The notes under the pieces are model-generated. The model worked only from the letters and a program-made list of their open reading frames with translations. It searched no databases and had not been told where the DNA came from. The position numbers were made by a program, and so were the translations under genes. From the NCBI GenBank assembly GCA_002305355.1, contig DBQS01000036.1, forward strand, positions 15,612 through 79,611: a stretch of 64,000 nucleotides of DNA, given 5' to 3'. The number at the start of each line of letters is the position of its first letter. The stretch's first letter is position 1. Shown in pieces: positions 18,461-48,857 of the stretch. Source of the stretch: Patescibacteria group bacterium UBA1388 (GTDB lineage Bacteria > Patescibacteriota > Microgenomatia > UBA1400 > PJMF01).

Positions 18461-19309
18461 TCATTGAAATTGAGTAAGTAGATTGACCAAGTTTTCTCGG
18501 TGGGGTTGGTTAATCAATGGTTGATTAAGCGCGGGAATTTGCTCGTGATAACTGGGCTTATCAACTTGGTAAATAATACCGATAGGAAATTTTTCTTCTT
18601 TTGGTTTGTTAGCGACCTCCAAGGCTTGTTGGTAATCGGCGGGATCATGTGAGGAGTCTAGTTGATATTGATGTTTCAAATAGTACTGAAAAGTGTTGAT
18701 TTTGTTGAAAGTTACGCACGGTTGAAGAATATTAATCATGGAAAATCCTGTATGTTTCATACCGGCAGTGATGAGCTTACTGAGTTCAGGTAAGTTGCCC
18801 GCAAAAGCTTGAGCGACAAAAGTGGCACCTTGAGTGATTGCCAGGGGAAGGGGATAAACTGGTGTTTCGATAATGCCAGTAGGTGTTGATTTCGACTTAT
18901 GTCCTTTTTGGGCTCTGGGAGAAACTTGGCCAGTAGTCAGACCGTAAACGCTATTATCGTGAACTAAAACAGTGATGTCATGATTGCCACGACAAGCGTG
19001 CAAGAAATGATTACCGCCCTCACCATAGATGGCGCCGTCTCCCGCCACGACCAAGACCGGTAGCTGATGATTGGCCAATTTGACTCCCACGGCGTTCGCA
19101 ATTGAACGGCCATGAAGAGTGTGCATGGCGTAAGCATTGACGAAGTCATTCATGTTACCAGAGCAGCCGATATCGAATAAAACAACCAAGCTAGAGGGAT
19201 CGAGTTTTTGCTCAACCAACGAATTGATGATGGCACGACCAATACTCCAATTTCCGCAGCCAGAACACCAAGTGGGTTGGTAGCCGGTTAAGTCTTGTGC
19301 TGTGACCAT
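18461..19309 (-). CDS. korB: 2-oxoacid:ferredoxin oxidoreductase beta subunit (TPP-binding)
   Basis: TWCSGCGNWS N-terminal motif; GDG...N TPP-binding motif (VVAGDGAIYGEGGNH). Confidence 0.8.
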   Translation of the reverse strand: MVTAQDLTGYQPTWCSGCGNWSIGRAIINSLVEQKLDPSSLVVLFDIGCSGNMNDFVNAYAMHTLHGRSIANAVGVKLANHQLPVLVVAGDGAIYGEGGNHFLHACRGNHDITVLVHDNSVYGLTTGQVSPRAQKGHKSKSTPTGIIETPVYPLPLAITQGATFVAQAFAGNLPELSKLITAGMKHTGFSMINILQPCVTFNKINTFQYYLKHQYQLDSSHDPADYQQALEVANKPKEEKFPIGIIYQVDKPSYHEQIPALNQPLINQPHRENLVNLLTQFQ

Positions 19310-19374
19310 GGTTGTCCTTACTCAATTTCGTTGTTGTTCATCAATTAAATAAAATCATTGATATGTTTATTTGA

Positions 19375-21144
19375 CTACTTTAAATGTTTGGTATTTTTTA
19401 CTATTGTTGTTACCGCCGCCGCTATTTCCTCTGGATAAAATGGCCGGCCGTCATATTTCAAAATTTTCTCTTCAATCGTGACCCCAGTCTGTTGTCTTAA
19501 CAATTGGCCAAACTGACCAGTGGCGTTGTTTTCAACTAGCAAATATTGTTTGTCAGCTTTAAATAAGGGGCGAATCTTTTGCTCATCCAGCGGAAAGACA
19601 TGGGTGAAATGAAGGAAAGCAGAATTAATTTTTTTGGCAGCGAGCAGATTGCGCGCCGCTTCAATTGGTCCTTTATTTCCTCCCCAGGACACAAAAACGA
19701 TTTTGGCTTGTTCAAGATCGCCAATCACTTGAGGGAGATGAAAATCTTTTTTCAAGTAGGTGGTCTGCTTCTTGGTACGCTTATCGACTTGCACTATGCG
19801 CGCAGCAGCGTCTTCAGTAGTATGACTATCTGCGAAATGCTCGTAGGAATTAGCTTGATAAAAAATGCCGGGTTGACCAGGAATCAATCTTGGCGAAATT
19901 CCGTCACTCGTGTTAGTGTAACGCAAATAAGGTTTTTGGTTAGTAGACGTAATTGTCTTGCCGCGATCAATTTTCATTTGAGAGGCTTTTTTAATCGTAA
20001 GATAATCTACGCTTCGATGCGACTCAGATAAAAATTTATCCGACATGACGATAACTGGTGTTTGGTATTGGTCAGCCAAGTCAAAGGCTTTGAGAGTTAG
20101 ATCAAGCATTTCTTTGTGGTCTCCTGGGGCAAGGACAATCTTGGGAAACTCGCCATGACCAGCGTGACAAGCAAACAGCAGGTCGCCTTGTTCAGTCCAG
20201 GTGGGCATCCCAGTTGCTGGTCCTGGTCGTTGGCTCAGGAAAACCACGATCGGTAGTTCGGCAATACCGGCGTAGGAAATTGATTCCACCATTAAGGCAA
20301 AACCTCCACCGGAAGTGGCCACTGCTGCGCGTGCTCCAGAAAACGAGGCGCCCAATGCCTCATTAATCACGCCGATTTCATCTTCAGCGTGTCTAACTAC
20401 CATGCCAGTTTGTGATTGCCACCCGGCTAAAGACCCGAGTATAGATGAGGCAGGTGTCATCGGGTAGGCGGCAAAAAACCGACAATCTGCTGCGGCTGCG
20501 CTGAAACTGAAAACTTCGTTACCGGTCATCACTGGAGAAGATAATGTAGGTACTGGTTTTTTGCCGCGTGACAAGACAGGTTTGACCAATTCTTGATATT
20601 GTTGCCACACATAGTCAAAGCCAGCTTGCGCGCACTCAATGTTTTTATTTGCTACTGCAGCGGACTTTTTACCAAATTGGTCAGTAATCATTTGGTGTAC
20701 CAGCTTGATCTCACCGTCAAGCAGCGCCACACTCGCCCCCAAAGCGATCATGTTGAGCATGATGCGGTCGGCTTTTAAGTCTACAAGGATTTCTTGGAGG
20801 GGTAGAGCAATTTTTGTGGATTTTGTTTTTGGTTCAAACTGTTTGGGATCAAACACTACTAAAGTATCTTTGTGGAATCGATGCTGGTGGTGCAGAAAAG
20901 TTTTTTCGTCTAAACACACAAGGCAGTCTATTAATTGTTTGCTAGCAGTTGGTTGATCAAGATTTATTAATACCTCCACAGTATTATGTCCACCTTGAAT
21001 CAGCGACGGATATTCTGAATAGTCAAAAATGTCTAGTCCTGACCGGGTTGCTATTTTACTCATTGCCAAGCTTGTTACCATCACTCCTTGGCCGGCTGGT
21101 GCGCCAATTTTCCATAAAAAGGGTAATGTGGCCTGGTTAGTCAT
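19375..21144 (-). CDS. korA: 2-oxoacid:ferredoxin oxidoreductase alpha subunit with fused N-terminal gamma domain
   Basis: N-terminus IGAPAGQGVMVTS is the gamma-subunit signature; central GNEVFSFSAAAADCRFFAAYPMTPAS is the alpha-subunit pyrimidine-binding region. Confidence 0.8.
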   Translation of the reverse strand: MTNQATLPFLWKIGAPAGQGVMVTSLAMSKIATRSGLDIFDYSEYPSLIQGGHNTVEVLINLDQPTASKQLIDCLVCLDEKTFLHHQHRFHKDTLVVFDPKQFEPKTKSTKIALPLQEILVDLKADRIMLNMIALGASVALLDGEIKLVHQMITDQFGKKSAAVANKNIECAQAGFDYVWQQYQELVKPVLSRGKKPVPTLSSPVMTGNEVFSFSAAAADCRFFAAYPMTPASSILGSLAGWQSQTGMVVRHAEDEIGVINEALGASFSGARAAVATSGGGFALMVESISYAGIAELPIVVFLSQRPGPATGMPTWTEQGDLLFACHAGHGEFPKIVLAPGDHKEMLDLTLKAFDLADQYQTPVIVMSDKFLSESHRSVDYLTIKKASQMKIDRGKTITSTNQKPYLRYTNTSDGISPRLIPGQPGIFYQANSYEHFADSHTTEDAAARIVQVDKRTKKQTTYLKKDFHLPQVIGDLEQAKIVFVSWGGNKGPIEAARNLLAAKKINSAFLHFTHVFPLDEQKIRPLFKADKQYLLVENNATGQFGQLLRQQTGVTIEEKILKYDGRPFYPEEIAAAVTTIVKNTKHLK

Positions 21145-21204
21145 AATACTAATCTTAATTTTCAGTCAATTTTATTTGACACGAGCGCACTGTAATTACT
21201 GTAA

Positions 21205-21648
21205 TTATAGCGTCTTTCCCCATCTTAGAATTTCTTCATTTGCTGTTTGTTCGTTCATAAAATATTGGTCAATTTTTAGCGGTTGACCAACTAATTTTCC
21301 ACCAATTTTTTCAATCCATTGAGTTAAATAATCAACTGCACCACAAAATTTATTGTAGTTGGAATCACCTAAACCAAGGATGGCGAAAGCCTGGTCATTA
21401 AACTTGGCCTCGCCAAATTTATCAATCATCATCATAAAATCATCATGTGGCATGCCTTCTTGGCCGCCATAATCCCAAGATGGACTTGCTAAAATGACCA
21501 ATTCAAATGATTCAAAATCGCTCGGTTGGGTTTCAAGAGCCATTTTAAGCTTTACTTCATGACCTGCTTGCTGTAATACTTGCTCCAAAGCTTGAGCAGC
21601 CATCATCGTGCTACCTGAATAAGTGGCGTATATGATCAATGTTTTCAT
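21205..21648 (-). CDS. Flavodoxin (long ORF trimmed to the internal ATG at 21648 to avoid overlap with the upstream gene)
   Basis: MKTLIIYATYSGSTMMAAQALE FMN-phosphate-binding loop (T/SxTGxT-like); ILGLGDSNY motif. Confidence 0.7.
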   Translation of the reverse strand: MKTLIIYATYSGSTMMAAQALEQVLQQAGHEVKLKMALETQPSDFESFELVILASPSWDYGGQEGMPHDDFMMMIDKFGEAKFNDQAFAILGLGDSNYNKFCGAVDYLTQWIEKIGGKLVGQPLKIDQYFMNEQTANEEILRWGKTL

Positions 21649-21712
21649 AGAGGTATGATACTTCGTCTTCTTACACAATGCTACTTGGATTGAGATTATC
21701 GGGCTAAGTATC

Positions 21713-22384
21713 CTATAAGTAAAATGGCTCACCATGGCCGGGATAAGTAAGAGCATTGGGAGCCAATTGACGTATTCGGTCAATTGATTTAAACAACTGA
21801 CCACGACGGCTGTATTGGAAATCTGTTCTACCAAATCCATCTTTAAAAATAACGTCACCAGCAAATAAAATTTGATTATTAGTGGTCAAATTAGCCTCAT
21901 TATGGTTTGGGTTAAAATCGGGCGAAAAAAGCAGAGTGCAACTGCCCGGCGTATGACCGGGTGAATGGATGACTTGAAACGAAATTTGTCCGAAACTAAT
22001 GATCTGACCGTCCACTAGCTGGCGATCAGCGGGCGGCACGGGATCGGCAGAGAGTTTAGTCCAATGCTCAGCCGAAGCTTGAGCTTTTTTGATTAAGAAA
22101 TTATCAGATGGGTGTAAATAAATTGGGATATCAAAGGCAAGTTTGACAGATAAACAACCAAGCACATGATCAAAATGTCCGTGAGTCAAGATAATTGCCA
22201 AAGGATGAAGCTGTCGAGTAAGCACTTCTTCTACAATTGTTTCTCCATCATCAGCGGGATCAATAATAATCGCATCGAGTGTTTTTACACAATTCACTAG
22301 ATAGCAGTTAGTTTGTAGCGCTCCCAGAGTAAGAGTGTTGATTTGCACTTTGTCAGTCAATTTGTCAGTCATTGCAATTGGCAA
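21713..22384 (-). CDS. MBL-fold metallo-hydrolase (glyoxalase II-like)
   Basis: ILTHGHFDHVLG is the HxHxDH motif; downstream His residues (HSPGHTPG). Confidence 0.75.
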   Translation of the reverse strand: MPIAMTDKLTDKVQINTLTLGALQTNCYLVNCVKTLDAIIIDPADDGETIVEEVLTRQLHPLAIILTHGHFDHVLGCLSVKLAFDIPIYLHPSDNFLIKKAQASAEHWTKLSADPVPPADRQLVDGQIISFGQISFQVIHSPGHTPGSCTLLFSPDFNPNHNEANLTTNNQILFAGDVIFKDGFGRTDFQYSRRGQLFKSIDRIRQLAPNALTYPGHGEPFYL

Positions 22385-36887: not shown

Positions 36888-39023
36888 GTGCTTATGAATC
36901 TTGTCATTGTGGAATCACCAACGAAAGCGAGAAAACTGAGATCATACTTGGGAAATGATTTTCAAGTTGAAGCATCAGTAGGTCACATTCGTGATTTGCC
37001 AAAGAAAAAAATGGGAGTTGATATTGATCATAATTTCCAACCCACCTATGAAGTTAATCCAGATAAAAAAGACGTAATTAGCACGCTTAGAAAAGAAGCT
37101 AAATCAGCCAAAATTATTTATTTGGCAACTGATCCTGATCGGGAAGGAGAAGCTATTGCATGGCATATTACTCATGTGTTGAATGGTAATAAGCCAAACT
37201 TTAAACGAGCCACATTTCATGAAATTACCAAATCAGCGGTGCAAGCAGCCATTGAAAATCCGGGCGAACTAAATATGGATTTAGTCAACGCGCAGCAAGC
37301 ACGCCGAATTGTTGATCGGTTGGTAGGGTATGAAGTCTCACCGGTGTTGTGGAAAAAGGTGAGGCGGGGTTTGTCTGCTGGTCGCGTGCAGTCAGTAGCA
37401 CTCCGACTAATTGTGGAACGTGAGCGGGAAATTGAAGCTTTTGTCCCAGATGAATATTGGGAAGTTGATGTTGCTTTATCAGTAGAAAGCAATCCACCTT
37501 CACAAATTTTTGAAAAAGGCAAAGCATCTGAGTCATTACCAGCTGGTAGTTTGATTGCACGATTGATTAAAATAAATAATCACAAGTTTGAACCCAAGAA
37601 AAAACAAGATTTAGGTGATCTTGATCAAATCTTACCGCAGGCAAAATATGTTGTATCGCAAGTTGACCGTAAAGAAAGACGCCGCAAAAGTTTACCACCT
37701 TTTACTACTTCCACGTTACAACAAGCGGCTGCTAATAAACTTGGAATGAGCAGTAAACAGAGTATGAAGCTTGCTCAGGATTTGTATGAAGAGGGTTTAA
37801 TTACTTATCATCGTACAGATTCAGTTAATCTTTCAGCCGGAGCGATTCAAGATGCGCGTAAATTTATTGGTGATCAGTTTGGAGATAAGTATCTACCTGT
37901 TCAAACTAGGATTTTTAGCAATAAGAGCAAGAATGCACAAGAAGCTCACGAAGCGATTCGAGTGACTGATCTACACATTTCTGATGAGAGAGTGATTGAT
38001 CAGGCAAAAAGACTAACTCATCGCCATGCGCAACTTTATGACTTGATTTGGCGCAGGTTTTTAGCAAGCCAAATGAATGAGGCGATTTATGATCAGACAA
38101 ATTTATTGATTGATGCGGAAGTGATGTCATCGCAAGCTGGATTTAAGTCTGCCCAATTCAAGTCAACGGGATCAGTTCTCAAGTTTGATGGCTGGATGAA
38201 GTTATTCCCCAATAATGGTGATTCTATTTTGCCAGATGTTAAAACGAATCACATCCTCAACTATGTAGACCACTTGCTGGCTCAGAAATTTACTCAGCCA
38301 CCAGCCCGCTACAACGACGCCTCACTTGTGAAGGAACTGGAAAAACGTGGTATTGGTCGACCGAGTACTTATGCCAGCATCATCTCTGTGATTGAAGAAC
38401 GTGGCTATGTGATGAGAGATGATCGGAAATTTAAAGCTACGCCAGTGGGGATGACGGTTAGTAATTTTCTGCTCAAACACTTTCCTGTGTTTATGGAATA
38501 TGAGTTTACTGCTGAAATGGAAGAAGACTTGGATAGGATTTCGAGAGGGGAAAAAGCATGGGCAAAAGTGGTAAAGGCTTTTTACACTCCCTTTCACCAA
38601 AAGGTAGTAGATGCAGAGGCTGCCGAGCGGACTCAAGTGCCAGTTGAAAAAACTGGTGAGCCTTGTCCGTTATGTGGAAAGACTGAAAAAGGAGAGATTG
38701 TAATTCGCAGCGGAAGATTCGGTAAATTCAAGAGTTGCAGCCGATTTCCTGAGTGTGAGTTTACTGAAAATATTGTAGACACAATTCCTGGAGTAAAATG
38801 CCCGCTGTGTGGTAAGGGTGAAGTAATTTCAAGAAATACGAGATGGGGAAAGAAGTTTTTTGGTTGTTCAACTTATCCGGAGTGTGATTGGGCAAGTTGG
38901 AAGCAACCACAGCCGGGAGATAAGATTTCCAAAACTGAGTGGAGAAAGCAGCAAAAAGCTCGCGCCGAACGCAAAAAAAAGCGAGAAAAAAGTCGGAAAA
39001 AGAAAACAAAAGTCAAATCTTAA
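36888..39023 (+). CDS. topA: DNA topoisomerase I
   Basis: N-terminal Toprim (VIVESPTKARKL..GHIRDLP); two C-terminal CPLCGK zinc ribbons; lysine-rich tail. Confidence 0.9.
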   Translation: MLMNLVIVESPTKARKLRSYLGNDFQVEASVGHIRDLPKKKMGVDIDHNFQPTYEVNPDKKDVISTLRKEAKSAKIIYLATDPDREGEAIAWHITHVLNGNKPNFKRATFHEITKSAVQAAIENPGELNMDLVNAQQARRIVDRLVGYEVSPVLWKKVRRGLSAGRVQSVALRLIVEREREIEAFVPDEYWEVDVALSVESNPPSQIFEKGKASESLPAGSLIARLIKINNHKFEPKKKQDLGDLDQILPQAKYVVSQVDRKERRRKSLPPFTTSTLQQAAANKLGMSSKQSMKLAQDLYEEGLITYHRTDSVNLSAGAIQDARKFIGDQFGDKYLPVQTRIFSNKSKNAQEAHEAIRVTDLHISDERVIDQAKRLTHRHAQLYDLIWRRFLASQMNEAIYDQTNLLIDAEVMSSQAGFKSAQFKSTGSVLKFDGWMKLFPNNGDSILPDVKTNHILNYVDHLLAQKFTQPPARYNDASLVKELEKRGIGRPSTYASIISVIEERGYVMRDDRKFKATPVGMTVSNFLLKHFPVFMEYEFTAEMEEDLDRISRGEKAWAKVVKAFYTPFHQKVVDAEAAERTQVPVEKTGEPCPLCGKTEKGEIVIRSGRFGKFKSCSRFPECEFTENIVDTIPGVKCPLCGKGEVISRNTRWGKKFFGCSTYPECDWASWKQPQPGDKISKTEWRKQQKARAERKKKREKSRKKKTKVKS

Positions 39024-39039
39024 TCATCTAAGTCTTAAT

Positions 39040-40644
39040 TTATCCTCTGTCCAGAAATTGGGTGCGCGAAGTAGGATCAACATGGGGGATATTCGCATTC
39101 ATCCCACCCCAAAAATGGTTGAGAGTGATCAGTTTTTTGAGCCACGCGTGAGTTAATGAACGATAAGCAATGTGACCACCCGGCCTTGTGCGCAAATGAA
39201 TGAGATATTGTAGATCATCGATGGAACCATAAAAACGGTAAGTAGTAGCATGGGCATGAGGAAGTAAATACTTGGTATATTCGTCAACGAGAGGCTGATC
39301 ATCGAATTCGTGAGAAGCTTGGTACCGCCACTTTTTGAGAAGTTGATAGGTGTTTGTTAATCGTTGCTGATATGCTCGTTTAAGTGGTTTAAGTTCAGGA
39401 ATTGCCAGATAATCACATAAGAAGTAACAAGCTTGATCATCTCGATTCAACTCGGCTTCCAAATTAATTTCGTCTTGCCAAACAGGCACAAATCTCTCCA
39501 AACTTCGATGTCGATTTAAATCTTTTAAAATTCCAAAATCTGCCATCCCCTCAATCGTAATTGCTCCACTTTGAGCAGCTGGACCGATTTGGAAATGATG
39601 GTTGTGTTGGCTGAAAACTAATGCGCCGATTTTTTGCAATTGATTTCTACTGAGGATAAATTTATTTTCTCTACTTAATGGAAATTCAAGTAACTGTAGA
39701 TGACGAAGATAAGCCTGGAAAGCATTAGTGTTGTAAGCAACTCTGAGGGTTGTGTTTGGCGATCGACCGATTGTTCTGTTGGCAGATGATTTCTTGAACA
39801 AACTCCGTAATTGTTTAATGAGTGCACGATTGGTATTGATTTGTCTGGTGTTGGCCGTTGTGTGCCTGATTAAACCATCTGCTTCGGGGATGTATCCGGT
39901 TTTAGAATGTTGTTTGCCTCCCACTAGTAAGTCAAAAAGCAAATTTCCCAAGTGCTGGTCGATACCCATCGCGCTTCCTTTCAAGAGCGCAATTAATTCT
40001 GCCCAGTTACGGGCAGACATAATCATTCCGAGGCTGGTTTGTAAGCCCATGGGTAATAAATAACGAGCCGTGTCAAAAGTCCTAGCTTGCAGAGCGGCAG
40101 CTTGCCGTTTGTCGTTAGTGTCAATTTTAAAATAATCTGCGAGGGCGGTTTGGGTGAGTGGCAATAGTTCCCGATAATCTGCCATTTGTTTGAGTATTAT
40201 TTTTTCATAATTTGTTTTGGCAGCAGAATTTTTAGTTATTGGTAGCTTCACAAATTTTGGATCGGCAAAGTTTTGAAATCTGGTTGATCTTTCTTGACCA
40301 GCCACTACTGGATTGCGGTAAAACAACCTCATCGCAGTGATCATGGGAACATTTTCAATGCATACAAATACATCTGCCATATCTCCCACTGATTTGTGGC
40401 CATAATTTTGAAATATTGCTTCCAGACGACTGGCTGCGTCAGTGTCTTTCGCAAGCACTTCTTTGGCAATCTCAACCACTGAATCTGCCGATCGGCTGTA
40501 ACGCGCTCCCAAATAAGCGTTAATTGAAGGTTGTTTACGTAGGGGATCTTGGAGTAAGGTATGAACCGCTAAGTGATGCCAGCTAGTTTGACTGGATAAA
40601 CTGGCGATATGAAGTTGGGGGTAGAATTTAAATTTTTGAGACAT
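39040..40644 (-). CDS. thyX: Tandem-duplicated ThyX-like (flavin-dependent thymidylate synthase family) protein
   Basis: N-half RLFYRNPVVAGQERSTRF aligns with the ThyX RQWFRHRIASYNELSGRY region; C-half contains RHR (NRHRSLERF) and the ThyX C-terminal LPxxxxTxxxxxxxxRxLxxxxxLRT motif (TTYRFYGSIDDLQYLIHLRTRP). Confidence 0.5.
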   Translation of the reverse strand: MSQKFKFYPQLHIASLSSQTSWHHLAVHTLLQDPLRKQPSINAYLGARYSRSADSVVEIAKEVLAKDTDAASRLEAIFQNYGHKSVGDMADVFVCIENVPMITAMRLFYRNPVVAGQERSTRFQNFADPKFVKLPITKNSAAKTNYEKIILKQMADYRELLPLTQTALADYFKIDTNDKRQAAALQARTFDTARYLLPMGLQTSLGMIMSARNWAELIALLKGSAMGIDQHLGNLLFDLLVGGKQHSKTGYIPEADGLIRHTTANTRQINTNRALIKQLRSLFKKSSANRTIGRSPNTTLRVAYNTNAFQAYLRHLQLLEFPLSRENKFILSRNQLQKIGALVFSQHNHHFQIGPAAQSGAITIEGMADFGILKDLNRHRSLERFVPVWQDEINLEAELNRDDQACYFLCDYLAIPELKPLKRAYQQRLTNTYQLLKKWRYQASHEFDDQPLVDEYTKYLLPHAHATTYRFYGSIDDLQYLIHLRTRPGGHIAYRSLTHAWLKKLITLNHFWGGMNANIPHVDPTSRTQFLDRG

Positions 40645-40738
40645 ATGTTGATGTGATGATATTACACAAAATGGGTTTGTTAAGTTTTTTCATAATTGAA
40701 ATTGGCAAAACCACTCAAATTGAAGTGCCGGCTAGGTG

Positions 40739-41557
40739 TCATCGTTTTAGTTGACCTGATTTTGCCAAATACTTATTAAATATCTTACTGAGTTTTGGCA
40801 GGCCTTTATCATCGGTGTAATCGATTTTGCAGGCAGAAATTGAAATAAAACCCTCATTTAAAGCAACTGTGTCGGTGTTTGGCGGCAAGCCGTCGTACTT
40901 TGAATCGATATAAGAAAAATCATCATCAGTCATCACGATGTCATTTTTCCAGTAAGCTTGCTGGGCGGTTTTTACTACCCGCACTTGATTGGTTGCTTCT
41001 TCAGGAAAGTTAATGTTCCAAAAAGTGTATGGTTCAAATTGAGTACTTAACGCTTTTTTAATGATTATTTCCAGCATTTGACCAGGGTAGGCGAGGTATT
41101 TTTCATTAAAACTACCGTCATGCTCATGGAACCACCTGCCATCAGTGACGATAGAAGTAGCCAGCGCCGGGACTAAAAAACTTTGGACAGCGGTAATCAC
41201 TGCTGCCACGGTGCCTGACCGATGAATATTGGCGGTGGTGTTGCGCCCAATATTCACTCCGGAAATAACTAAATCTGGTTTTTTATTAAGTTTATTGAAC
41301 CCAAAATAAACTGCGTCTGAAGGTGTGCCATCAACCCAGTAAGCAGTAGTGCCATCCACTATCTCCGTACCCCAAACAATAGGTAGGCCAAAGGTGATTT
41401 TGCCTCCCACTGCTGATTGCTGTGACTTTGTGGCTACAACAGCATAATCCGCAAATTTTTCTACAATGCGTTTTACCAAAATCAAGCCTTCAGCGCGCAC
41501 CGAATCATCGCCAGTGAGCATAATGAATGGTTTTGATTTTTTTGTGCGACGCGCCAC
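40739..41557 (-). CDS. surE: 5'/3'-nucleotidase SurE
   Basis: IMLTGDDSVRAEGL (N-terminal DDG-like metal site), VISGVNIGRNTTANIHRSGTVAA. Confidence 0.7.
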   Translation of the reverse strand: MARRTKKSKPFIMLTGDDSVRAEGLILVKRIVEKFADYAVVATKSQQSAVGGKITFGLPIVWGTEIVDGTTAYWVDGTPSDAVYFGFNKLNKKPDLVISGVNIGRNTTANIHRSGTVAAVITAVQSFLVPALATSIVTDGRWFHEHDGSFNEKYLAYPGQMLEIIIKKALSTQFEPYTFWNINFPEEATNQVRVVKTAQQAYWKNDIVMTDDDFSYIDSKYDGLPPNTDTVALNEGFISISACKIDYTDDKGLPKLSKIFNKYLAKSGQLKR

Positions 41558-41578
41558 AGTTTGCCTTTTTTGGTTTTT

Positions 41579-42154
41579 TTAGGATTTCTCAATAAAATTT
41601 CGCGACATTTTGCTGGCTTCCACAGTGGTATTTTTGTAGTACTTACTATTTAAATCGGCATGACCATAAGGTTTTTGAGCGGGTGTCTTGAGGCTGCAAA
41701 ATGCAATTTGTGCGATTTTCATTTTAGGATAAAGCTTAATCGGCATGCTGTTGGTATTATAAAGTTCAAGTGTGGCGTTGAGCTCGTTGCCGGGATCAAC
41801 AAAACCAGCCGTAGTATGAATGATCAATCCCAATCTTGCCAGGCTACTTTTGCCCATAATATTGCAGCAATAACTAGGGCCAACTCCGAAGTAGTCATCA
41901 GTGACTGCTAGTGCAAATTCATTGGGATGGAGAATAAAAAAATCCTTTTCAGATTTGAGATGAATTTTTGCCATATAGTCTCCGGCGGGATGCTTGGGGT
42001 CAATCACCGACATTTCATGTCTTTTAAAAACCATGAAGTCAAAACCTAGCAAGATGTCATAACTAGCAGGTTGCAACCGCCTTTCATCAAAATCCTTGAT
42101 AATGATTTCTCCCGCTTGTAAGGCTTGTTTGATATCAATGTCTGAAAGATACAT
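41579..42154 (-). CDS. dcd: dCTP deaminase
   Basis: MYLSDIDIKQAL...LQPASYDILLG N-terminus; dUTPase-fold motifs. Confidence 0.8.
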   Translation of the reverse strand: MYLSDIDIKQALQAGEIIIKDFDERRLQPASYDILLGFDFMVFKRHEMSVIDPKHPAGDYMAKIHLKSEKDFFILHPNEFALAVTDDYFGVGPSYCCNIMGKSSLARLGLIIHTTAGFVDPGNELNATLELYNTNSMPIKLYPKMKIAQIAFCSLKTPAQKPYGHADLNSKYYKNTTVEASKMSRNFIEKS

Positions 42155-42380
42155 ACTAAATCTGGTGGATGACCAATGAATTAACTACTAAATATATCCT
42201 CGGGCAGGAGAATCAATTCAGTTTAACGGATTTTAAAAAGTTTGCAATGGATGAATGTTGAAGCACACAAAACCTCAGAATGTGGGGGACCTATACAAAA
42301 GGATTCAGACACCTGAATAATATGGTAGACTGAAAGAAGAATGAATTAGAGCTGGGACGTTATTCGCAAGGAATTAGTTT

Positions 42381-42758
42381 ATGACTGCAGAACTTAGGTC
42401 AGATCAATTGACTGCCAGCACGATAGTAGTCAAAGGTACTAATCAGACATCGAATAAGCAAAAAGACACTTCAGCAGTCACCACGAAAAGAGTAGATTTT
42501 AGTGATCCAGACATTGTTGACCGGAAAACGGGTAAAACTCTTTATGAAGTAGGAGTTTGGGAAATTGTGTGGCGAAATTTTTTGGCGGGCATGAGCAGAG
42601 GGTTGGGTAACTTAATTTTGTTGATCATTTTTTCACTTGTGATTGGAAATTTATTTATGACTTATATCTGGCCGCACTTGTCTCCATTGGTCGATAATTT
42701 TTATTCGTCAAGCCAGTTATTTAATTTTGTTGAACAAAATTTTCCAACCGGTAGATAA
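42381..42758 (+). CDS. Hypothetical small membrane protein (one C-terminal TM)
   Basis: Open frame only; TM LGNLILLIIFSLVIGNLFMTYIW. Confidence 0.35.
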   Translation: MTAELRSDQLTASTIVVKGTNQTSNKQKDTSAVTTKRVDFSDPDIVDRKTGKTLYEVGVWEIVWRNFLAGMSRGLGNLILLIIFSLVIGNLFMTYIWPHLSPLVDNFYSSSQLFNFVEQNFPTGR

Positions 42759-42963
42759 ATTTAATTTTCCAACTTGAACGTTTAAATAGTCTTGATCGAT
42801 TGATTTAGACGTTAATATGACAGGTGATCATTATGCACAATCATAATCGGTAAGAAATGATACGGAATAATTATGTTTTAAGTTGTGATAGATTGTTGTT
42901 TGGATGATGACTAACTTTTTCAAGTAGTTTTTTGTAACTTGTTTGTAAGTAGAAAGGAAAGTA

Positions 42964-43395
42964 ATGAAGGTTCTCATTAAACGTTTTGATAAAACATTAC
43001 CGATACCGGAATATAAAACACCTGGGGCAGCTGCATTTGATTTGGCTGCGCGTCAAGATACGCAGATACCCCCAGGGGGTATAGGATACGTGCCGTTGAA
43101 CATTGCCCTGCAGCTGCCCAAAGACCACTGGGCATTGCTCGCCGCTCGGAGCAGCTTACACAAGCTAGGGTTGATGCTTGCCAACGGAATTGGGGTCGGG
43201 GATTATGACTATCGTGGAGACGGTGATGAATATTTGGCGGCGGTGTACAACTTCACTCAGCAGCCCGTTTTAGTGGAGAGGGGCGAGCGGATTGTGCAGA
43301 TGATCATTATGTCGCGCGAGGCAGTAGAGTTGATCGAAAAAGATCATTTCAATACTAAGGATCGCGGGGGTTACGGCAGCACTGGGCGGAAGTAG
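42964..43395 (+). CDS. dut: dUTP diphosphatase (trimeric dUTPase)
   Basis: GAAAFDL, RSSL, GVGDYDYRGD and GGYGSTG motifs (dUTPase motifs I-V). Confidence 0.8.
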   Translation: MKVLIKRFDKTLPIPEYKTPGAAAFDLAARQDTQIPPGGIGYVPLNIALQLPKDHWALLAARSSLHKLGLMLANGIGVGDYDYRGDGDEYLAAVYNFTQQPVLVERGERIVQMIIMSREAVELIEKDHFNTKDRGGYGSTGRK

Positions 43396-43562: not shown

Positions 43563-44294
43563 TTGTCAAGTCTTGCATTAATACCAAATATTGTGGTTGA
43601 GTGTGTAGCTGTGCCACATTTATTAGAACAAGCCAATCAGAGTGTCGTTAAGTTGAGAAAAAGTCATCGCTTATTTGAGGAAAAAGATCGGTTGTCACCA
43701 TCATTGTTGTTACCGTTGGCGGTAGAAGAATTAGATGAATTGGCTGAGGCTTACGATCAAGATGATGCTCAGGCGGCTTTAGGTGAATTGATGGATGTAA
43801 TCAATTATTGTTTATCCAATTTACAAGTTACGAATCGGCAACCAGCGTCTTTTTCTGACTTGATGCAGGGGGTTAATGGTTACGGTAAAAATTCGTGGGC
43901 AATTGAGCGCACCTGTGAAGTGATTCTTGATTCAGAAGATGATTACCGCGCGATTGCTGAGTATTTAAGACGCTTGTTTTCTATTGGTCAGTATTTGCCG
44001 ATTCCATTTGTGAGTATTAATCAATTTAATGAGATGATATTGAAAGTGGCGGCCAACAGACCGGTTCATTTTTATAGCGGACTTGATCCTTTAACTGGTC
44101 GAGCACTGTCTGGGGAAGACGCAGTCTTAGCTTTTCATCACTTTGAAAAGTGTTTCAGAGCAATTCGCGATCAGGTGCAAAGGACGCTCCAGCCGCAAGA
44201 CTGGCAACCGCACCAAAACGAGATAGCAGATTGGCGCCACTCGACAGAAAATTTGGCCAAGCTGCGACAACGGCTAAAAGTAGAGCCAGCTTGA
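43563..44294 (+). CDS. Protein with an N-terminal MazG-like all-alpha NTP-pyrophosphohydrolase motif; C-terminal part unknown
   Basis: VEELDELAEAYDQDDAQAALGELMDVINYCL resembles the MazG/HisE EExxE...ExxD metal-binding helices. Confidence 0.35.
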   Translation: MSSLALIPNIVVECVAVPHLLEQANQSVVKLRKSHRLFEEKDRLSPSLLLPLAVEELDELAEAYDQDDAQAALGELMDVINYCLSNLQVTNRQPASFSDLMQGVNGYGKNSWAIERTCEVILDSEDDYRAIAEYLRRLFSIGQYLPIPFVSINQFNEMILKVAANRPVHFYSGLDPLTGRALSGEDAVLAFHHFEKCFRAIRDQVQRTLQPQDWQPHQNEIADWRHSTENLAKLRQRLKVEPA

Positions 44295-44689: not shown

Positions 44690-45319
44690 ATGGCTGACAA
44701 AGGATTATTGATTACATTTGAAGGCGGCGAGGGCGGTGGTAAAACCACTCAAATTGTGAGGTTGCGTGACAAACTCACCAAGGCAGGTCATGATGTAGTA
44801 GTTCTGCGTGAGCCCGGCGGAACTGTCATCAGCGAGCAAATTAGAGAAGTGGTGCTGTCTGCCAAAAATGCTGGCATCGCCTACACGACGGAAGTCTTGT
44901 TGTTTCAGGCCGCTCGCGCGCAAATTTACCGAGAAATTGTATTACCTAGTTTGAAGGCTGGCAAGATAGTCTTGATTGATCGATCACGGGATAGCTCGGT
45001 GGTGTATCAGGGTATGGTAAGAGGTTTCGGGAAAGATTTGATTGAGCAACTCAATGAAATTTCTACAAAAAATACTTACCCAGATTTAACAATACTACTT
45101 GATATATCAGTAGAAGAAGGATTACAAAGAAGGGCAGATTCCGGCACTTCAAACCGCTTGGATATGGAAGATACTGATTTTCACCAAAAAGTTCGTGATG
45201 CATACTTGCAGCTAGCCAAAGAAGATTCTGCTCATCGATGGGTAGTAATTGATGCCAACAAATCTATTGATGAAGTTGATGAAGAAATTTGGACAAAAGT
45301 TTCCGTAAAATTAAACTGA
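44690..45319 (+). CDS. tmk: Thymidylate kinase
   Basis: ITFEGGEGGGKTTQ P-loop; DRSRDSSVVYQG (DRx motif); LID region. Confidence 0.85.
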   Translation: MADKGLLITFEGGEGGGKTTQIVRLRDKLTKAGHDVVVLREPGGTVISEQIREVVLSAKNAGIAYTTEVLLFQAARAQIYREIVLPSLKAGKIVLIDRSRDSSVVYQGMVRGFGKDLIEQLNEISTKNTYPDLTILLDISVEEGLQRRADSGTSNRLDMEDTDFHQKVRDAYLQLAKEDSAHRWVVIDANKSIDEVDEEIWTKVSVKLN

Positions 45320-46257: not shown

Positions 46258-47880
46258 ATGTCTAGTTATCAAAAAGTTTCAAGTTATGAGGGTAGGCAAG
46301 GTGAGGTGAAGAGAGTAGTGCTCTTATACTCTGGTGGGTTGGATACTTCGGTGATGTTGAAGTGGATCCAAGACAAATATGAGGCAGAAGTTGTTGCGCT
46401 CACGATTGATATTGGTCAGCAAGCTGACGATCTAGAAAAAATCCGCAAGAAAGCGCTTAAACTAGGAGCGATTAAAGCCATAATTGTTGACGCCAAGAAT
46501 GAGTTTGCTTATCACTACATTGCCAAAGGTATTAAGGCAAATGCGCATTATCAAGGTCGATATTACTTGAGTACGCCACTGGGTCGACCATTGCTAGCAA
46601 AATTGGCGGTTGATGCTGCTCGCGAACACGGTGCTGATACGATTGCGCACGGTTCAACTGGAAAAGGCAATGACCAAGTACGGTTGGAAGGGGCGGTTTT
46701 AACCCTCGCGCCAGAGATGAAGATCATTGCACCGGTGCGAGAGTGGAGTATGGGCAGAGACGAAGAATTGGCCTATGCTAAGAAACATAAAATTCCGGTT
46801 AAGCAAACTGTTAGCAGCCCGTATTCATACGACGATAATATGTGGGGTGTAACTGGCGAAAGTGGCGAGATTGAGAATCCAAGCATAATTCCGCCACTTG
46901 AGAAAATCTTACAGGTTTCCACTTTACCAGAAAAAGCCCCCAACAAACCACAATATGTTGAGCTCCAGTTTGTCAAAGGTTTGCCGGTGGCACTCGACGG
47001 TAAACAACTGGGGTTAGTAGACTTAATTGGTCAGCTAAATAAAATTGGAGCCAAGCATGGGGTGGGGATTGCTCATCATATCGAAGACAGGTTGGTCGGT
47101 CTTAAAGTACGGGGTTTATATGAAGCTCCCGCTGCAGAAATCATCATTAATGCCCACTTCAATTTGGAGAAGTATGTCTGCACCAGGATGGAAAATGAAT
47201 TTAAATCACTAGTAGATTCCAAGTGGGCATATCTTTGTTATGGGGCAATGTGGCATGAACCATTAATGAATGATCTAAACGCTTACATTAACAAAGTTAA
47301 CGAAAAAGTGACAGGTTCAGCAACGGTGAAGCTCTTTAAAGGTATGGCGGAAGTGGTGGCAGTAGACACCCATAACACCATTTATGATGAGAAGCTGGCG
47401 ACTTTCATGAAAGATGCGAGTTTTAATCAAAATGCTTCGCCTGGGTTTATTGAAATCTATACACTCCAGATGAGATTAGCTCAAGAAACCGATAAATTTG
47501 CATTGTTGACGATTGGGGAAGAGCACAATAAACGCAAGTTTTTACCACTCGTTGAAAGACTGAAAAAATTGGGCTTTTTCTTCTATGCCACTGAAAACAC
47601 CCATCAGTTTCTCAAGAAAAAAAAGATAGAGTCGATATTACTTCATAAAATGTATAGCGGAAAAAACCCAAATTTGGAAGATATTCTCAAGCAAAATTTG
47701 TTTGACTTAATTATTGATATTCCGTACAGCAAACAAACGGCGGGCAGTGAGAAAGATGAAGAAGTGATTCGAGAGTGGGCTATCAAAAATGATATTCCGT
47801 TGTATACCGATTTTAGGACAACTGAAAATTTAATCAAGAAATTGGAAAAAAGAATGGTCGTGCAGAAGAAAGGACGATGA
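46258..47880 (+). CDS. argG: Argininosuccinate synthase fused to a C-terminal MGS-like (CarB/PurH-type) domain
   Basis: LLYSGGLDTS PP-loop, HGSTGKGNDQVR and full ArgG core to about aa 412; C-terminal about 125 aa (FLPLVERLKKLGFFFYATENTHQFLKK...LFDLIIDIPYS...VIREWAIKNDIPLYTDF) matches the MGS-like fold pattern. AAAGGA RBS. Confidence 0.8.
   Translation: MSSYQKVSSYEGRQGEVKRVVLLYSGGLDTSVMLKWIQDKYEAEVVALTIDIGQQADDLEKIRKKALKLGAIKAIIVDAKNEFAYHYIAKGIKANAHYQGRYYLSTPLGRPLLAKLAVDAAREHGADTIAHGSTGKGNDQVRLEGAVLTLAPEMKIIAPVREWSMGRDEELAYAKKHKIPVKQTVSSPYSYDDNMWGVTGESGEIENPSIIPPLEKILQVSTLPEKAPNKPQYVELQFVKGLPVALDGKQLGLVDLIGQLNKIGAKHGVGIAHHIEDRLVGLKVRGLYEAPAAEIIINAHFNLEKYVCTRMENEFKSLVDSKWAYLCYGAMWHEPLMNDLNAYINKVNEKVTGSATVKLFKGMAEVVAVDTHNTIYDEKLATFMKDASFNQNASPGFIEIYTLQMRLAQETDKFALLTIGEEHNKRKFLPLVERLKKLGFFFYATENTHQFLKKKKIESILLHKMYSGKNPNLEDILKQNLFDLIIDIPYSKQTAGSEKDEEVIREWAIKNDIPLYTDFRTTENLIKKLEKRMVVQKKGR
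47503..47877 (+). other. MGS-like domain appended to ArgG
   Basis: Pattern GFxxxATxxTxxxLxxxxI...VxxxxxGxxPxxxDxIKxxxxxLIIxxP..S resembles the CarB C-terminal allosteric domain. Confidence 0.5.
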
Positions 47881-48857
47881 TGACCAAATATTGGGATTTG
47901 AAAGCAACGTTGCTTGAAAAAATTAAGGCGCGTGGCGGTTGGACCAACTGCCACGCGCACCTTGATCGCGCATATACCATCACCAAAAAAAACTTTGCGC
48001 TCAGCAACAAATTGAGAGGTGAAAAATGGCAACTCAATCGTGAGTTGAGACAGCGCTCAACAGTGAATCAAATTTATGACCGGATGGCAATGGCGATAGA
48101 GGTGCTGCTTGCTCAGGGCGTGACTGCTATCGGTTCTTTTATTGATGTTGATGATGACGTCAAAGACAAGGCTATTCAGGCCGCTATCAAAATTCGAGAC
48201 AAATATCAGGCTGATGTGACTATCAAGTACCTCAACCAATCTAGCTATGGTTTGTTTAATCAGGATAAAAAGGCCAGGGAGTGGTTTGATGTTGGCGCCG
48301 AATTTGTGGATATCATTGGTGGTTTGCTCAAAGCCGATGCGGGTAGAGAAGAGGAACATTTGGACATTTTATTGGCAACCGCCAAACGGATGGGTAAAAT
48401 GGTGCACGTCCATGTAGATGAAATTAATTTGCCCGAAGAACATGAGACTGAAATGCTGGCGAAGAAAACAATTGAACATGGCATGGAGGGAAGAGTGGCG
48501 GGGATTCATGGCATTTCGATTAACGCTCGGCCGCAGGCCGAGCGGGAGAAGATCTACAAACTGATCAACAAGGCGCAAATAATGTTTATTTCTTGTCCCG
48601 TTTCTTGGTTAAATTCCAGTCGCAGTGAAAAACTGTCACCCATCCACAACCCACTCACGCCAGTTGACGAAATGTTGGCGCACGATATTACGGTTGGGAT
48701 CGGGGTAGATAACATTGCCGATATTTTTATGCCTTTCAATAATGCCGATTTATGGCTTGATTTACGGGTTTTATTGGAGGCTGCACGTCTTCACGATCTT
48801 GATGTGCTCGCAAAAATTGCTTCTACCAACGGTAGGAAAATTTTAGGGATTAAATAA
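47877..48857 (+). CDS. Cytosine-deaminase-like amidohydrolase (CodA family), ATGA-coupled to argG
   Basis: TNCHAHLDRA (HxH metal site), IGSFIDVDDD, VHVHVDEINLPEEHE, GIGVDNIADIFMPF align with the CodA metal-binding and catalytic segments. Confidence 0.65.
   Translation: MMTKYWDLKATLLEKIKARGGWTNCHAHLDRAYTITKKNFALSNKLRGEKWQLNRELRQRSTVNQIYDRMAMAIEVLLAQGVTAIGSFIDVDDDVKDKAIQAAIKIRDKYQADVTIKYLNQSSYGLFNQDKKAREWFDVGAEFVDIIGGLLKADAGREEEHLDILLATAKRMGKMVHVHVDEINLPEEHETEMLAKKTIEHGMEGRVAGIHGISINARPQAEREKIYKLINKAQIMFISCPVSWLNSSRSEKLSPIHNPLTPVDEMLAHDITVGIGVDNIADIFMPFNNADLWLDLRVLLEAARLHDLDVLAKIASTNGRKILGIK

Follow-up and report, generated by a model that had tools for sequence, protein, structure and literature searches.

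A double-length ThyX-like protein from a Patescibacteria genome divides the ThyX active-site residues between two fused domains

Introduction

How are the active sites of ThyX, which are canonically assembled from three identical subunits, built when two ThyX domains are fused in one chain and have diverged from each other? This question is raised by a gene at 39040..40644 on the minus strand of a 64,000-nucleotide stretch of DNA (the window) from Patescibacteria group bacterium UBA1388 (GenBank assembly GCA_002305355.1, contig DBQS01000036.1, positions 15,612 to 79,611). The gene runs from an ATG to a stop codon at 39040-39042 and encodes a double-length, ThyX-like protein of 534 amino acids (aa). 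A first-pass annotation had described the product as two ThyX-like halves with a degenerate RHR motif in the first repeat, and had proposed that a fused pseudo-dimer would build its active sites from non-identical halves. As described below, the protein consists of two ThyX folds, and the residues of the canonical active site are divided reciprocally between them across a large family, an arrangement that would imply two active sites per dimer of fused chains.

ThyX, the flavin-dependent thymidylate synthase (FDTS), is described in reviews as a homotetramer whose four active sites are identical and are each shared by three subunits (PMC5954106, PMC6514825), each lying where three subunits meet (PMC5954106). 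In the enzymes of Mycobacterium tuberculosis (Mtb) and Helicobacter pylori (Hp), subunit A supplies the RHR motif, which contacts the phosphates, ribityl and flavin of flavin adenine dinucleotide (FAD) as well as deoxyuridine monophosphate (dUMP), together with Arg199 (R174 in Thermotoga maritima ThyX, Tm). Two ligands of the FAD phosphates, Ser71 (Tm T55) and Arg190 (Tm R165), come from subunit B, and subunit C supplies Arg87, Ser105, Arg107 and Tyr108, which bind dUMP and of which the last three are Tm S88, R90 and Y91 (PMC6514825). In the enzyme of Paramecium bursaria chlorella virus 1 (PBCV-1), Arg182 (Tm R174) and Gln75 are on one monomer and Ser88/Gln89 on another (PMC3498832). R174 activates dUMP (PMC8316439, PMC3498832), and S88, R90 and Y91 help in methylene transfer (PMC8316439).

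Results and Discussion

The predicted N-terminus of the 534-aa protein agrees with those of 21 homologs in a 22-sequence family alignment, in which the mean column identity is 63% and about 100 columns are invariant. The whole protein matches Pfam PF02511 (Thy1) in two stretches with 69.3 bits, above the cut-off of 24.8 bits. Against the thyX equivalog model TIGR02170 it scores 35.2 bits, below the cut-off of 87.9, and the aligned part is confined to aa 39-220 of the N-half. A phmmer search of the protein against all PDB sequences returned no match at E <= 10, and a PDB search with the 22-sequence profile gave no more than weak matches, to PBCV-1 ThyX at aa 445-490. A comparison of each half with PF02511, which had been proposed as a check, bears out the N-half (aa 1-285; 39790..40644, minus strand) with 56.3 bits, but the C-half (aa 286-534; 39043..39789, minus strand) stays under the cut-off with 16.4 bits. 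Taken together, these scores mark the protein as a distant ThyX relative, and the C-half was therefore tested separately.

With deep profiles built from 141 diverse double-length relatives, hhalign aligns the N-half with the C-half over 199 columns (probability 91%, E 1.1e-6) at about 13% identity. The signal is clear with these profiles only; shallow profiles from the 22 sequences gave a probability of 3.5% for the same comparison. The N-half (aa 16-271) aligns with residues 3-218 of T. maritima ThyX at E 3e-5, and the C-half aligns with residues 2-217 over 202 columns, with RHR falling on RHR and L484-R485 on L173-R174. The T. maritima query is 100% identical to the 1KQ4/1O26 chain. The structure models agree with the profiles. 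The AlphaFold model of the full chain has a predicted local distance difference test score (pLDDT) of 85.9 and a predicted template modelling score (pTM) of 0.88, and its 50 best-ranked Foldseek matches in the PDB are all ThyX or PolB, a methylase with the ThyX fold. For the C-half modelled alone (pLDDT 80.9), the top 50 matches are again all ThyX/PolB, with a probability of 1.0, E values down to 9e-6, template modelling (TM) scores up to 0.67 and 225-250 aligned columns, which cover the whole domain. None of these matched PDB chains spans more than one half of the full-chain model (query-normalised TM score, TMq, <= 0.24); by phmmer and Foldseek, no solved structure in the PDB spans both halves of the double-length architecture.

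The 534-aa protein is therefore two ThyX folds. Since both halves match ThyX, neither being an unrelated domain, and since residues for FAD and dUMP are present and distributed between the halves, the tandem duplication proposed in the first-pass annotation is real, and the fusion arose through an ancient event of this kind.

Conservation was tabulated over 212 double-length homologs, comprising 141 representatives and 71 sequences from a shorter branch of about 450-525 aa in other phyla (the ~500-aa branch); the counts below refer to this set of 212 unless another number is given. The N-half retains the residues that canonically come from subunits B and C. The segment H83-K84-S85 (40390..40398, minus strand, as are all the segments that follow) corresponds to Tm H53-E54-T55 and Mtb H69/S71, the loop at the FAD phosphates and the folate side that subunit B contributes, and H83 is found in 211 and S85 in 210 sequences. 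R212 (40009..40011; Tm R165, Mtb R190), a second FAD-phosphate ligand of subunit B, is Arg in 198, while its C-half equivalent D476 varies (Ala in 63, Lys in 53, Asp in 34). The dUMP-binding and catalytic segment of subunit C, Tm E86-L-S88-G-R90-Y91, is represented by E118-R-S120-T-R122-F123 (40276..40293), with S120 in all 212 sequences, R122 in 211 and Tyr or Phe at position 123 in 210. Finally, D191-T-A-R194 (40063..40074; Tm E144...R147) is conserved in the N-half only, with D191 in 211 and R194 in 208; the C-half equivalents, E455 and K458, vary.

At the position of Tm R78-H79-R80 the N-half instead carries R110-N111-P112 (40309..40317). hhalign pairs RLFYRNPVVAGQERSTRF with RQWFRHRIASYNELSGRY, which replaces RHR by these three residues and keeps S120, R122 and F123. 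This alignment reproduces the one in the first-pass annotation, including the loss of RHR and the retention of the Ser and Arg residues; the Tyr that was also said to be kept is Phe123 in this protein, although 184 of the 212 relatives have Tyr there. Positions 110-112 are variable in the family (most often Asp in 57, Leu in 35 and Glu in 22; Glu in 60 and Ser in 25; Pro in 60, Gln in 41 and Ser in 36, respectively), and only 3 sequences have an RHR at any point of the N-half. The equivalent of R174 is lost from the N-half as well, where L221 takes its place; this position is Leu in 164 sequences and never Arg.

The C-half shows the opposite pattern. The sole intact RHR of the protein lies in K374-D375-L-N-R378-H379-R380 (39505..39525), aligned to Tm R78-H79-R80 and canonically a contribution of subunit A, with R378 in 211, H379 in 196, R380 in 204 and D375 in 210 sequences. 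The second A-type element, L484-R485-T-R-P-G-G-H491-I-A-Y494-R495 (39160..39195), contains R485, the counterpart of Tm R174, Mtb R199 and PBCV R182, which is present in 211. The first-pass annotation had the C-half keep RHR and the C-terminal ThyX helix motif; in the alignment it has RHR and L484-R485, the latter equal to Tm L173-R174. At the equivalents of H53, T55, S88, R90, Y91, R165 and R147, by contrast, the C-half varies or is gapped, and the position of the S-x-R-Y/F segment is a gap in 75 sequences. The same division is seen in simple pattern searches: S.R[YF] occurs in 210 N-halves, and RH[RK] occurs in 195 C-halves, where S.R[YF] then follows in only 4. Consequently, the contiguous motif RHRxxxxxxxSxR(Y) is absent from either domain of the protein, the N-half having RNP...S120-T-R122-F123 and the C-half having RHR without S-x-R-Y/F.

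All A-type residues are therefore conserved in the C-half only, and all B- and C-type residues in the N-half only. The full set of equivalents of R78, H79, R80, R174, S88, R90, Y91, H53, T55 and R165 occurs once per chain and is 93-100% conserved. This reciprocal pattern is found in 212 of 212 sequences, including a branch at 20-25% identity that comprises other phyla and archaea. The conservation tables thus show that the loss is reciprocal and ancient and goes beyond a degenerate first repeat: the N-half did lose RHR, as had been noticed, but the C-half has in turn lost the equivalents of S88/R90/Y91, H53/T55 and R165.

The loop that carries H83-K84-S85 deserves a separate comment. Residues 77-89 (about 40378-40416), F-x-x-Y-G-H-K-S-V-G-D-M-A, are invariant and form the most conserved stretch of the protein, and they are also the sole region of the model with pLDDT below 50. 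The combination of low pLDDT with the highest conservation would be in keeping with a mobile loop at the active site, of the kind formed around H53 in canonical ThyX.

Two readings of these tables differ in how many working sites they leave. According to the first, the protein is a decaying or non-functional duplicate, a pseudoenzyme, in keeping with the low TIGR02170 score and with the fact that either half alone is missing essential ThyX residues. However, the open reading frame (ORF) is intact, the 22-sequence alignment is as strongly conserved as given above, members from different phyla share the complementary pattern although they are only 20-25% identical, the linkage to dcd described below is conserved, and the family has thousands of members. 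In view of this strong cross-phylum conservation we rejected the reading, to which we give next to no credence. According to the second, all four pseudo-equivalent sites are active, with Lys or Arg at position 222 of the N-half and R384 of the C-half standing in for the lost residues, and the fusion is simply a covalent half of the tetramer in which no sites were lost. Position 222 is indeed Lys or Arg in 98 of the 141 sequences of the closer set, and position 384 is Arg or Lys in 129 of them. Nevertheless, the ~500-aa branch has Gln at 384 in 51 of 71 sequences and varies at 222, the N-half offers no substitute for RHR in binding FAD (positions 110-112 being D/L/E, E/S/N and P/Q/S), and the C-half has no S-x-R-Y/F segment to offer. 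We therefore regard four active sites as highly improbable.

The reciprocal split, together with the published three-subunit site (PMC6514825, PMC3498832), leads to the prediction that, of the four sites in a dimer, two are complete and two are dead. Two fused chains would pair about one true two-fold axis to give a pseudo-D2 "tetramer" of four domains. If its subunits are labeled A to D, then A and D would be C-halves and B and C would be N-halves. The sites (A;B;C) and (D;C;B) would be complete, each being formed from one C-half and both N-halves, and the sites (B;A;D) and (C;D;A) would be dead, as none of the A-, B- and C-type residues would be present in them. Each N-half would take the part of "B" in one of the live sites and that of "C" in the other, and this would account for its retention of both residue sets. 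The model predicts one site each for FAD and dUMP in a 534-aa chain and two of each in the homodimer, and this outcome would be the same whichever N-C interface is the intrachain one. The proposal that a fused pseudo-dimer builds its sites from non-identical halves is supported in this sense by the reciprocal conservation and by the published subunit roles, from which we infer the oligomeric state and the number of sites. On balance, we consider it probable that the protein is a working FDTS (dUMP + methylenetetrahydrofolate, CH2-THF, + NADPH -> dTMP) in the form of a fused pseudo-heterodimer, and that two of the four sites in its dimer are complete while two are dead.

Two elements of the protein have no counterpart in canonical ThyX. 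The linker motif GYIPEADGLIRHT (aa 250-262), between the domains, is conserved, and the C-terminal tail F-L-D-R-G (39043-39060) contains R533, which is Arg in 139 of 141 Patescibacteria-type sequences and absent from the ~500-aa branch. They bear on the possibility that the enzyme is a thymidylate synthase in which the degenerate sites have been repurposed for NADPH or reductant docking, for folate or for an allosteric nucleotide, giving two catalytic and two accessory pockets. In addition to the conserved linker motif, this would provide a role for the invariant residues S50-R51, R188, Y480, H491, Y494, R495 and R533, which are without canonical counterparts, and in the Mtb enzyme NADP+ sits at the place of FAD, with the route of flavin re-reduction described as unresolved (PMC6514825). 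On the other hand, the positions that would line the dead sites are the variable ones in the tables of about 210 sequences, and R533 does not extend to the ~500-aa branch; repurposed sites are accordingly an unlikely alternative. An equally doubtful variant is an obligately asymmetric enzyme, in which the domains are fully specialized, two sites are catalytic, and the former sites, the linker and the C-terminal tail are free for a new role, such as NADPH or reductant docking or allosteric nucleotide sensing.

The genomic context points to dTMP synthesis. Directly upstream of the ThyX-like gene lies surE (5'/3'-nucleotidase; 40739..41557, minus strand; PF01975 122 bits, TIGR00087 132 bits), preceded by dcd (dCTP deaminase; 41579..42154, minus strand; TIGR02274 168.5 bits against a cut-off of 92.8), the first gene of a putative dcd-surE-thyX operon. 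The gaps in this minus-strand order are 21 and 94 nucleotides (nt), and the ThyX-like gene is probably co-transcribed with dcd and surE. A divergent set on the plus strand consists of a small membrane-protein ORF, dut (dUTPase; 42964..43395; PF00692 75.7 bits, TIGR00576 96.6 bits), a MazG-like ORF and tmk (44690..45319; PF02223 153 bits), which encodes thymidylate kinase, the consumer of the dTMP made. These Pfam and TIGR family scores confirm the cluster with surE, dcd, dut and tmk that had been read from the DNA. Together, dcd, surE, the ThyX-like gene and the divergent dut and tmk would form a module from dCTP through dUTP, dUMP and dTMP to dTDP. In species-representative genomes, the great part of them Dojkabacteria/WS6 and other Patescibacteria, 80 related loci were compared, and in 57 of these dcd is adjacent to and co-directional with the ThyX-like gene. 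Searches of the 64-kb window with validated queries for ThyA (E. coli) and ThyX (T. maritima), and with hidden Markov models (HMMs) of both halves, found no second thymidylate synthase; the gene is thus the only thymidylate synthase candidate within the window, a narrower statement than one about the genome. The window also encodes a folate-dependent formyltransferase (Fmt) and a flavodoxin.

An intact catalytic residue set in a dTMP-pathway context makes flavin-dependent thymidylate synthesis the best-supported function, and it is from these two lines that we infer activity. The same evidence bears on the alternative that this is a ThyX-fold enzyme with another substrate or chemistry, such as a PolB-like UMP/dUMP methylase, a dCMP or hydroxymethyl-forming enzyme or a nucleotide-modifying enzyme, and is not the thymidylate synthase of the cell. 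PolB (4p5a/4p5b) is among the top structural matches of both models, the protein is under the TIGR02170 equivalog cut-off, and D375 stands in place of Gln75, which lines the uracil pocket in PBCV-1 ThyX (PMC3498832). Moreover, the titles of PDB entries 3ge9/3fnn speak of an atypical ThyX of C. glutamicum that is dispensable for thymidylate synthesis. Yet the residues for dUMP activation and methylene transfer (equivalents of R174, S88, R90, Y91 and R78) are nearly invariant, the conserved neighbor dcd and the dut and tmk genes in the window belong to the dTMP pathway and not to a secondary-metabolite cluster, and the window holds no other thymidylate synthase. A different chemistry is therefore quite improbable, more so than repurposed sites, and less so than four active sites.

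Several points weigh against the preferred reading of a working FDTS with two complete sites per dimer. The C-half alone is under the Pfam PF02511 cut-off (16.4 vs 24.8 bits) and the whole protein is under the TIGR02170 equivalog cut-off (35.2 vs 87.9 bits), the residue equivalences depend on alignments of about 10-20% identity, and E118 is Ala in 61 of the 212 sequences. The dUMP-phosphate Arg of canonical enzymes (Mtb R87, Hp R66) has no conserved N-half equivalent, and the Lys or Arg at position 222, beside the R174 equivalent, could be a partial substitute for R174. The dimer geometry is a prediction from conservation and D2 symmetry, and four fused chains could come together in a tetramer instead of two in a dimer. 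Likewise, activity is predicted from the residue set and context. Finally, the absence of a second synthase applies to the 64-kb window only, so that ThyA, canonical ThyX or thymidine kinase may be encoded elsewhere in the genome.

Some further features of the locus were recorded. A promoter and terminator scan of 38900-43000 gave site counts not above those in shuffled sequence. A promoter-like TTAACA-16-TATCAT (40656-40683, minus strand; 10/12 matches), whose end lies 12 nt upstream of the start codon ATG at 40644, is a lead only; it would imply either a very short leader or an internal promoter inside the dcd-surE-thyX set. No obvious Shine-Dalgarno sequence is seen upstream of this ATG. 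The 125-aa ORF between dcd and dut (42381-42758, plus strand) contains a C-terminal segment that is hydrophobic and matches DUF5665 weakly, with 20.7 bits, below the cut-off; it is kept at the same position in the related loci L001, L002 and L065. The 243-aa ORF between dut and tmk (43563-44294, plus strand) has weak MazG and PRA-PH matches (E 0.004-0.006, below cut-offs) and is recovered by tblastn in locus L002 only; it could be a divergent all-alpha nucleoside triphosphate (NTP) pyrophosphohydrolase ("house-cleaning" or dimeric-dUTPase-like) of the dTTP module. Elsewhere in the window, 18461-21864 (minus strand) encodes a two-subunit 2-oxoacid:ferredoxin oxidoreductase (POR/TPP domains), followed by a flavodoxin ORF that shares about 150 nt with the next ORF (21713-22384). 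Low-potential reductants supplied within the same genome could be relevant to the reduction of the flavin; nothing here ties POR/flavodoxin to ThyX. At 46258-47880 (plus strand) lies an unusual fusion of argininosuccinate synthase (both domains E about 1e-65) with a C-terminal MGS-like domain (PF02142, 52 bits), the stop codon of which is overlapped by an amidohydrolase ORF (47877-48857).

The double-length architecture itself is widespread. The close family contains more than 400 full-length clusters of about 531 aa at 48-97% identity, for which the source databases (NCBI, JGI) give the names "FAD-dependent thymidylate synthase" or "ThyX". With a limit of E <= 1e-3, an exhaustive profile search returned 1,988 cluster representatives, of which 239 have E <= 1e-30; among the best 150, nearly all have the full length of 450-640 aa. 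Further named members come from Ktedonobacteraceae, Bryobacteraceae and Chitinispirillales. The ~500-aa branch, for which 7,488 of 8,000 scored candidates had E <= 1e-10, is found in Entotheonella/Tectomicrobia, Methylomirabilales and Aenigmarchaeota as well. Double-length ThyX is thus common in Patescibacteria, in several other bacterial phyla, including Acidobacteria, and in DPANN archaea, and it is already labeled ThyX. The present locus is an ordinary member of this large annotated family and is not special to its source genome. A literature search, limited in its coverage, found no description of a tandem, duplicated or pseudo-dimeric ThyX or of a split site.

Individual relatives provide additional observations. 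The closest syntenic relative, L065 (contig CAZKSJ010000006.1), has about 80% protein identity and the order DprA-TopA-ThyX-SurE-Dcd; its metagenome-assembled genome (MAG) contig is labeled "uncultured Pseudomonadales" and is probably a mis-binned or mislabeled Patescibacteria contig. Its ThyX appears as ORFs of 334 and 221 aa, but a real split gene was rejected since a scaffold gap of 100 N with duplicated flanks lies at 5814-5914. Fragments such as the 221-aa representative P0145 may stem from gaps of this kind. P0403, an 859-aa protein in the ~500-aa branch, has extra sequence past the double ThyX, which may be a further fusion or a gene-calling artifact. Locus L081, on a 1.14-Mb metagenome contig (1-2494 and 8822-9484), encodes a 556-aa double-length ThyX with about 25% identity to the 534-aa protein, near a class II ribonucleotide reductase, NrdR and uracil-DNA glycosylase (UDG), a different but still nucleotide-centered neighborhood.

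Compared with the canonical homotetrameric ThyX structures (TM0449, 1O26; Rv2754c, 2AF6/3GWC; H. pylori, 3N3Y/3AH5; PBCV-1 A674R, 2CFA/4FZB), the protein shares the fold in both halves, the overall catalytic set, the predicted cofactors and reaction, and the pathway context. It differs in being a single 534-aa chain of two diverged domains (about 13% mutual identity), predicted to form a homodimer with two complete sites instead of a homotetramer with four, and in having RHR (C-half) and SxR(Y/F) (N-half) split. In engineered ThyX heterotetramers (Leduc et al., 2004, PNAS), subunits with different defects reportedly make up for one another inside a single tetramer. The work, cited in PMC5954106 and PMC3498832, is reported to have established that several subunits together form a ThyX active site. 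The fused protein resembles a natural, fixed version of this subunit complementation. Whereas the engineered tetramers were an artificial mix of point mutants of identical subunits, complementation here would be fixed by gene fusion and long divergence. PolB (4P5A/4P5B), a UMP/dUMP C5-methylase of polyoxin biosynthesis, is likewise a ThyX-fold flavoenzyme and is among the top structural neighbors, but it is a single-domain homotetramer from a secondary-metabolite cluster, while the 534-aa protein is a tandem from a dTTP-synthesis cluster.

A possible characterized relative comes from Chlamydia. The C. trachomatis ThyX CT632 is reported to be an active, FAD-dependent thymidylate synthase of about 529 aa (~60 kDa), and so of double length (Griffin et al., 2005, J Biol Chem 280:5456). 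Chlamydial ThyX sequences were too dissimilar to be included in the original ThyX phylogeny (PMC6171736), which would suit a divergent long form. No Chlamydia proteins were seen among the named homolog matches, and a literature search of limited coverage gave no account of the size or domains of CT632. If CT632 shares this clade, then the class already has a characterized member. As an analogy only, the long-form RNase Z (yeast Trz1; PMC5449637) also went from a homodimeric enzyme to a tandem-duplicated chain with the catalytic motif in one half and complementary functions kept by the other; its fold and chemistry are unrelated to ThyX, and it is a precedent for the route only.

Conclusions

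The fused protein is a variant, of modest interest, of a known enzyme, and as the gene is an ordinary clade member, what matters is the pattern across the family and not the single locus. While the architecture is common and already labeled ThyX, the complete, reciprocal division of residues between the fused domains is a finding at the level of the family, and it implies, as judged from residue conservation, two sites instead of four. It is very likely that the double-length genes, which fail TIGR02170, are nevertheless the sole thymidylate synthase of many reduced genomes.

If the model of a dimer with two sites is true, the family would be a natural case of an oligomeric enzyme that was subfunctionalized once its gene had been duplicated in tandem; it would confirm, from independent evolutionary evidence, the residue-to-subunit assignment in ThyX, and would offer mechanistic work a convenient asymmetric scaffold. 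If the less likely obligately asymmetric reading is true, it would provide a simple "half-site" system for studying flavin re-reduction and the coordination of three substrates in FDTS, and the view of a four-site homotetramer would be invalid for a large share of the ThyX genes of uncultured bacteria and archaea. ThyX is an antibiotic target, and the homotetramer picture with four sites probably fails across the large, structurally unsolved double-length clade.

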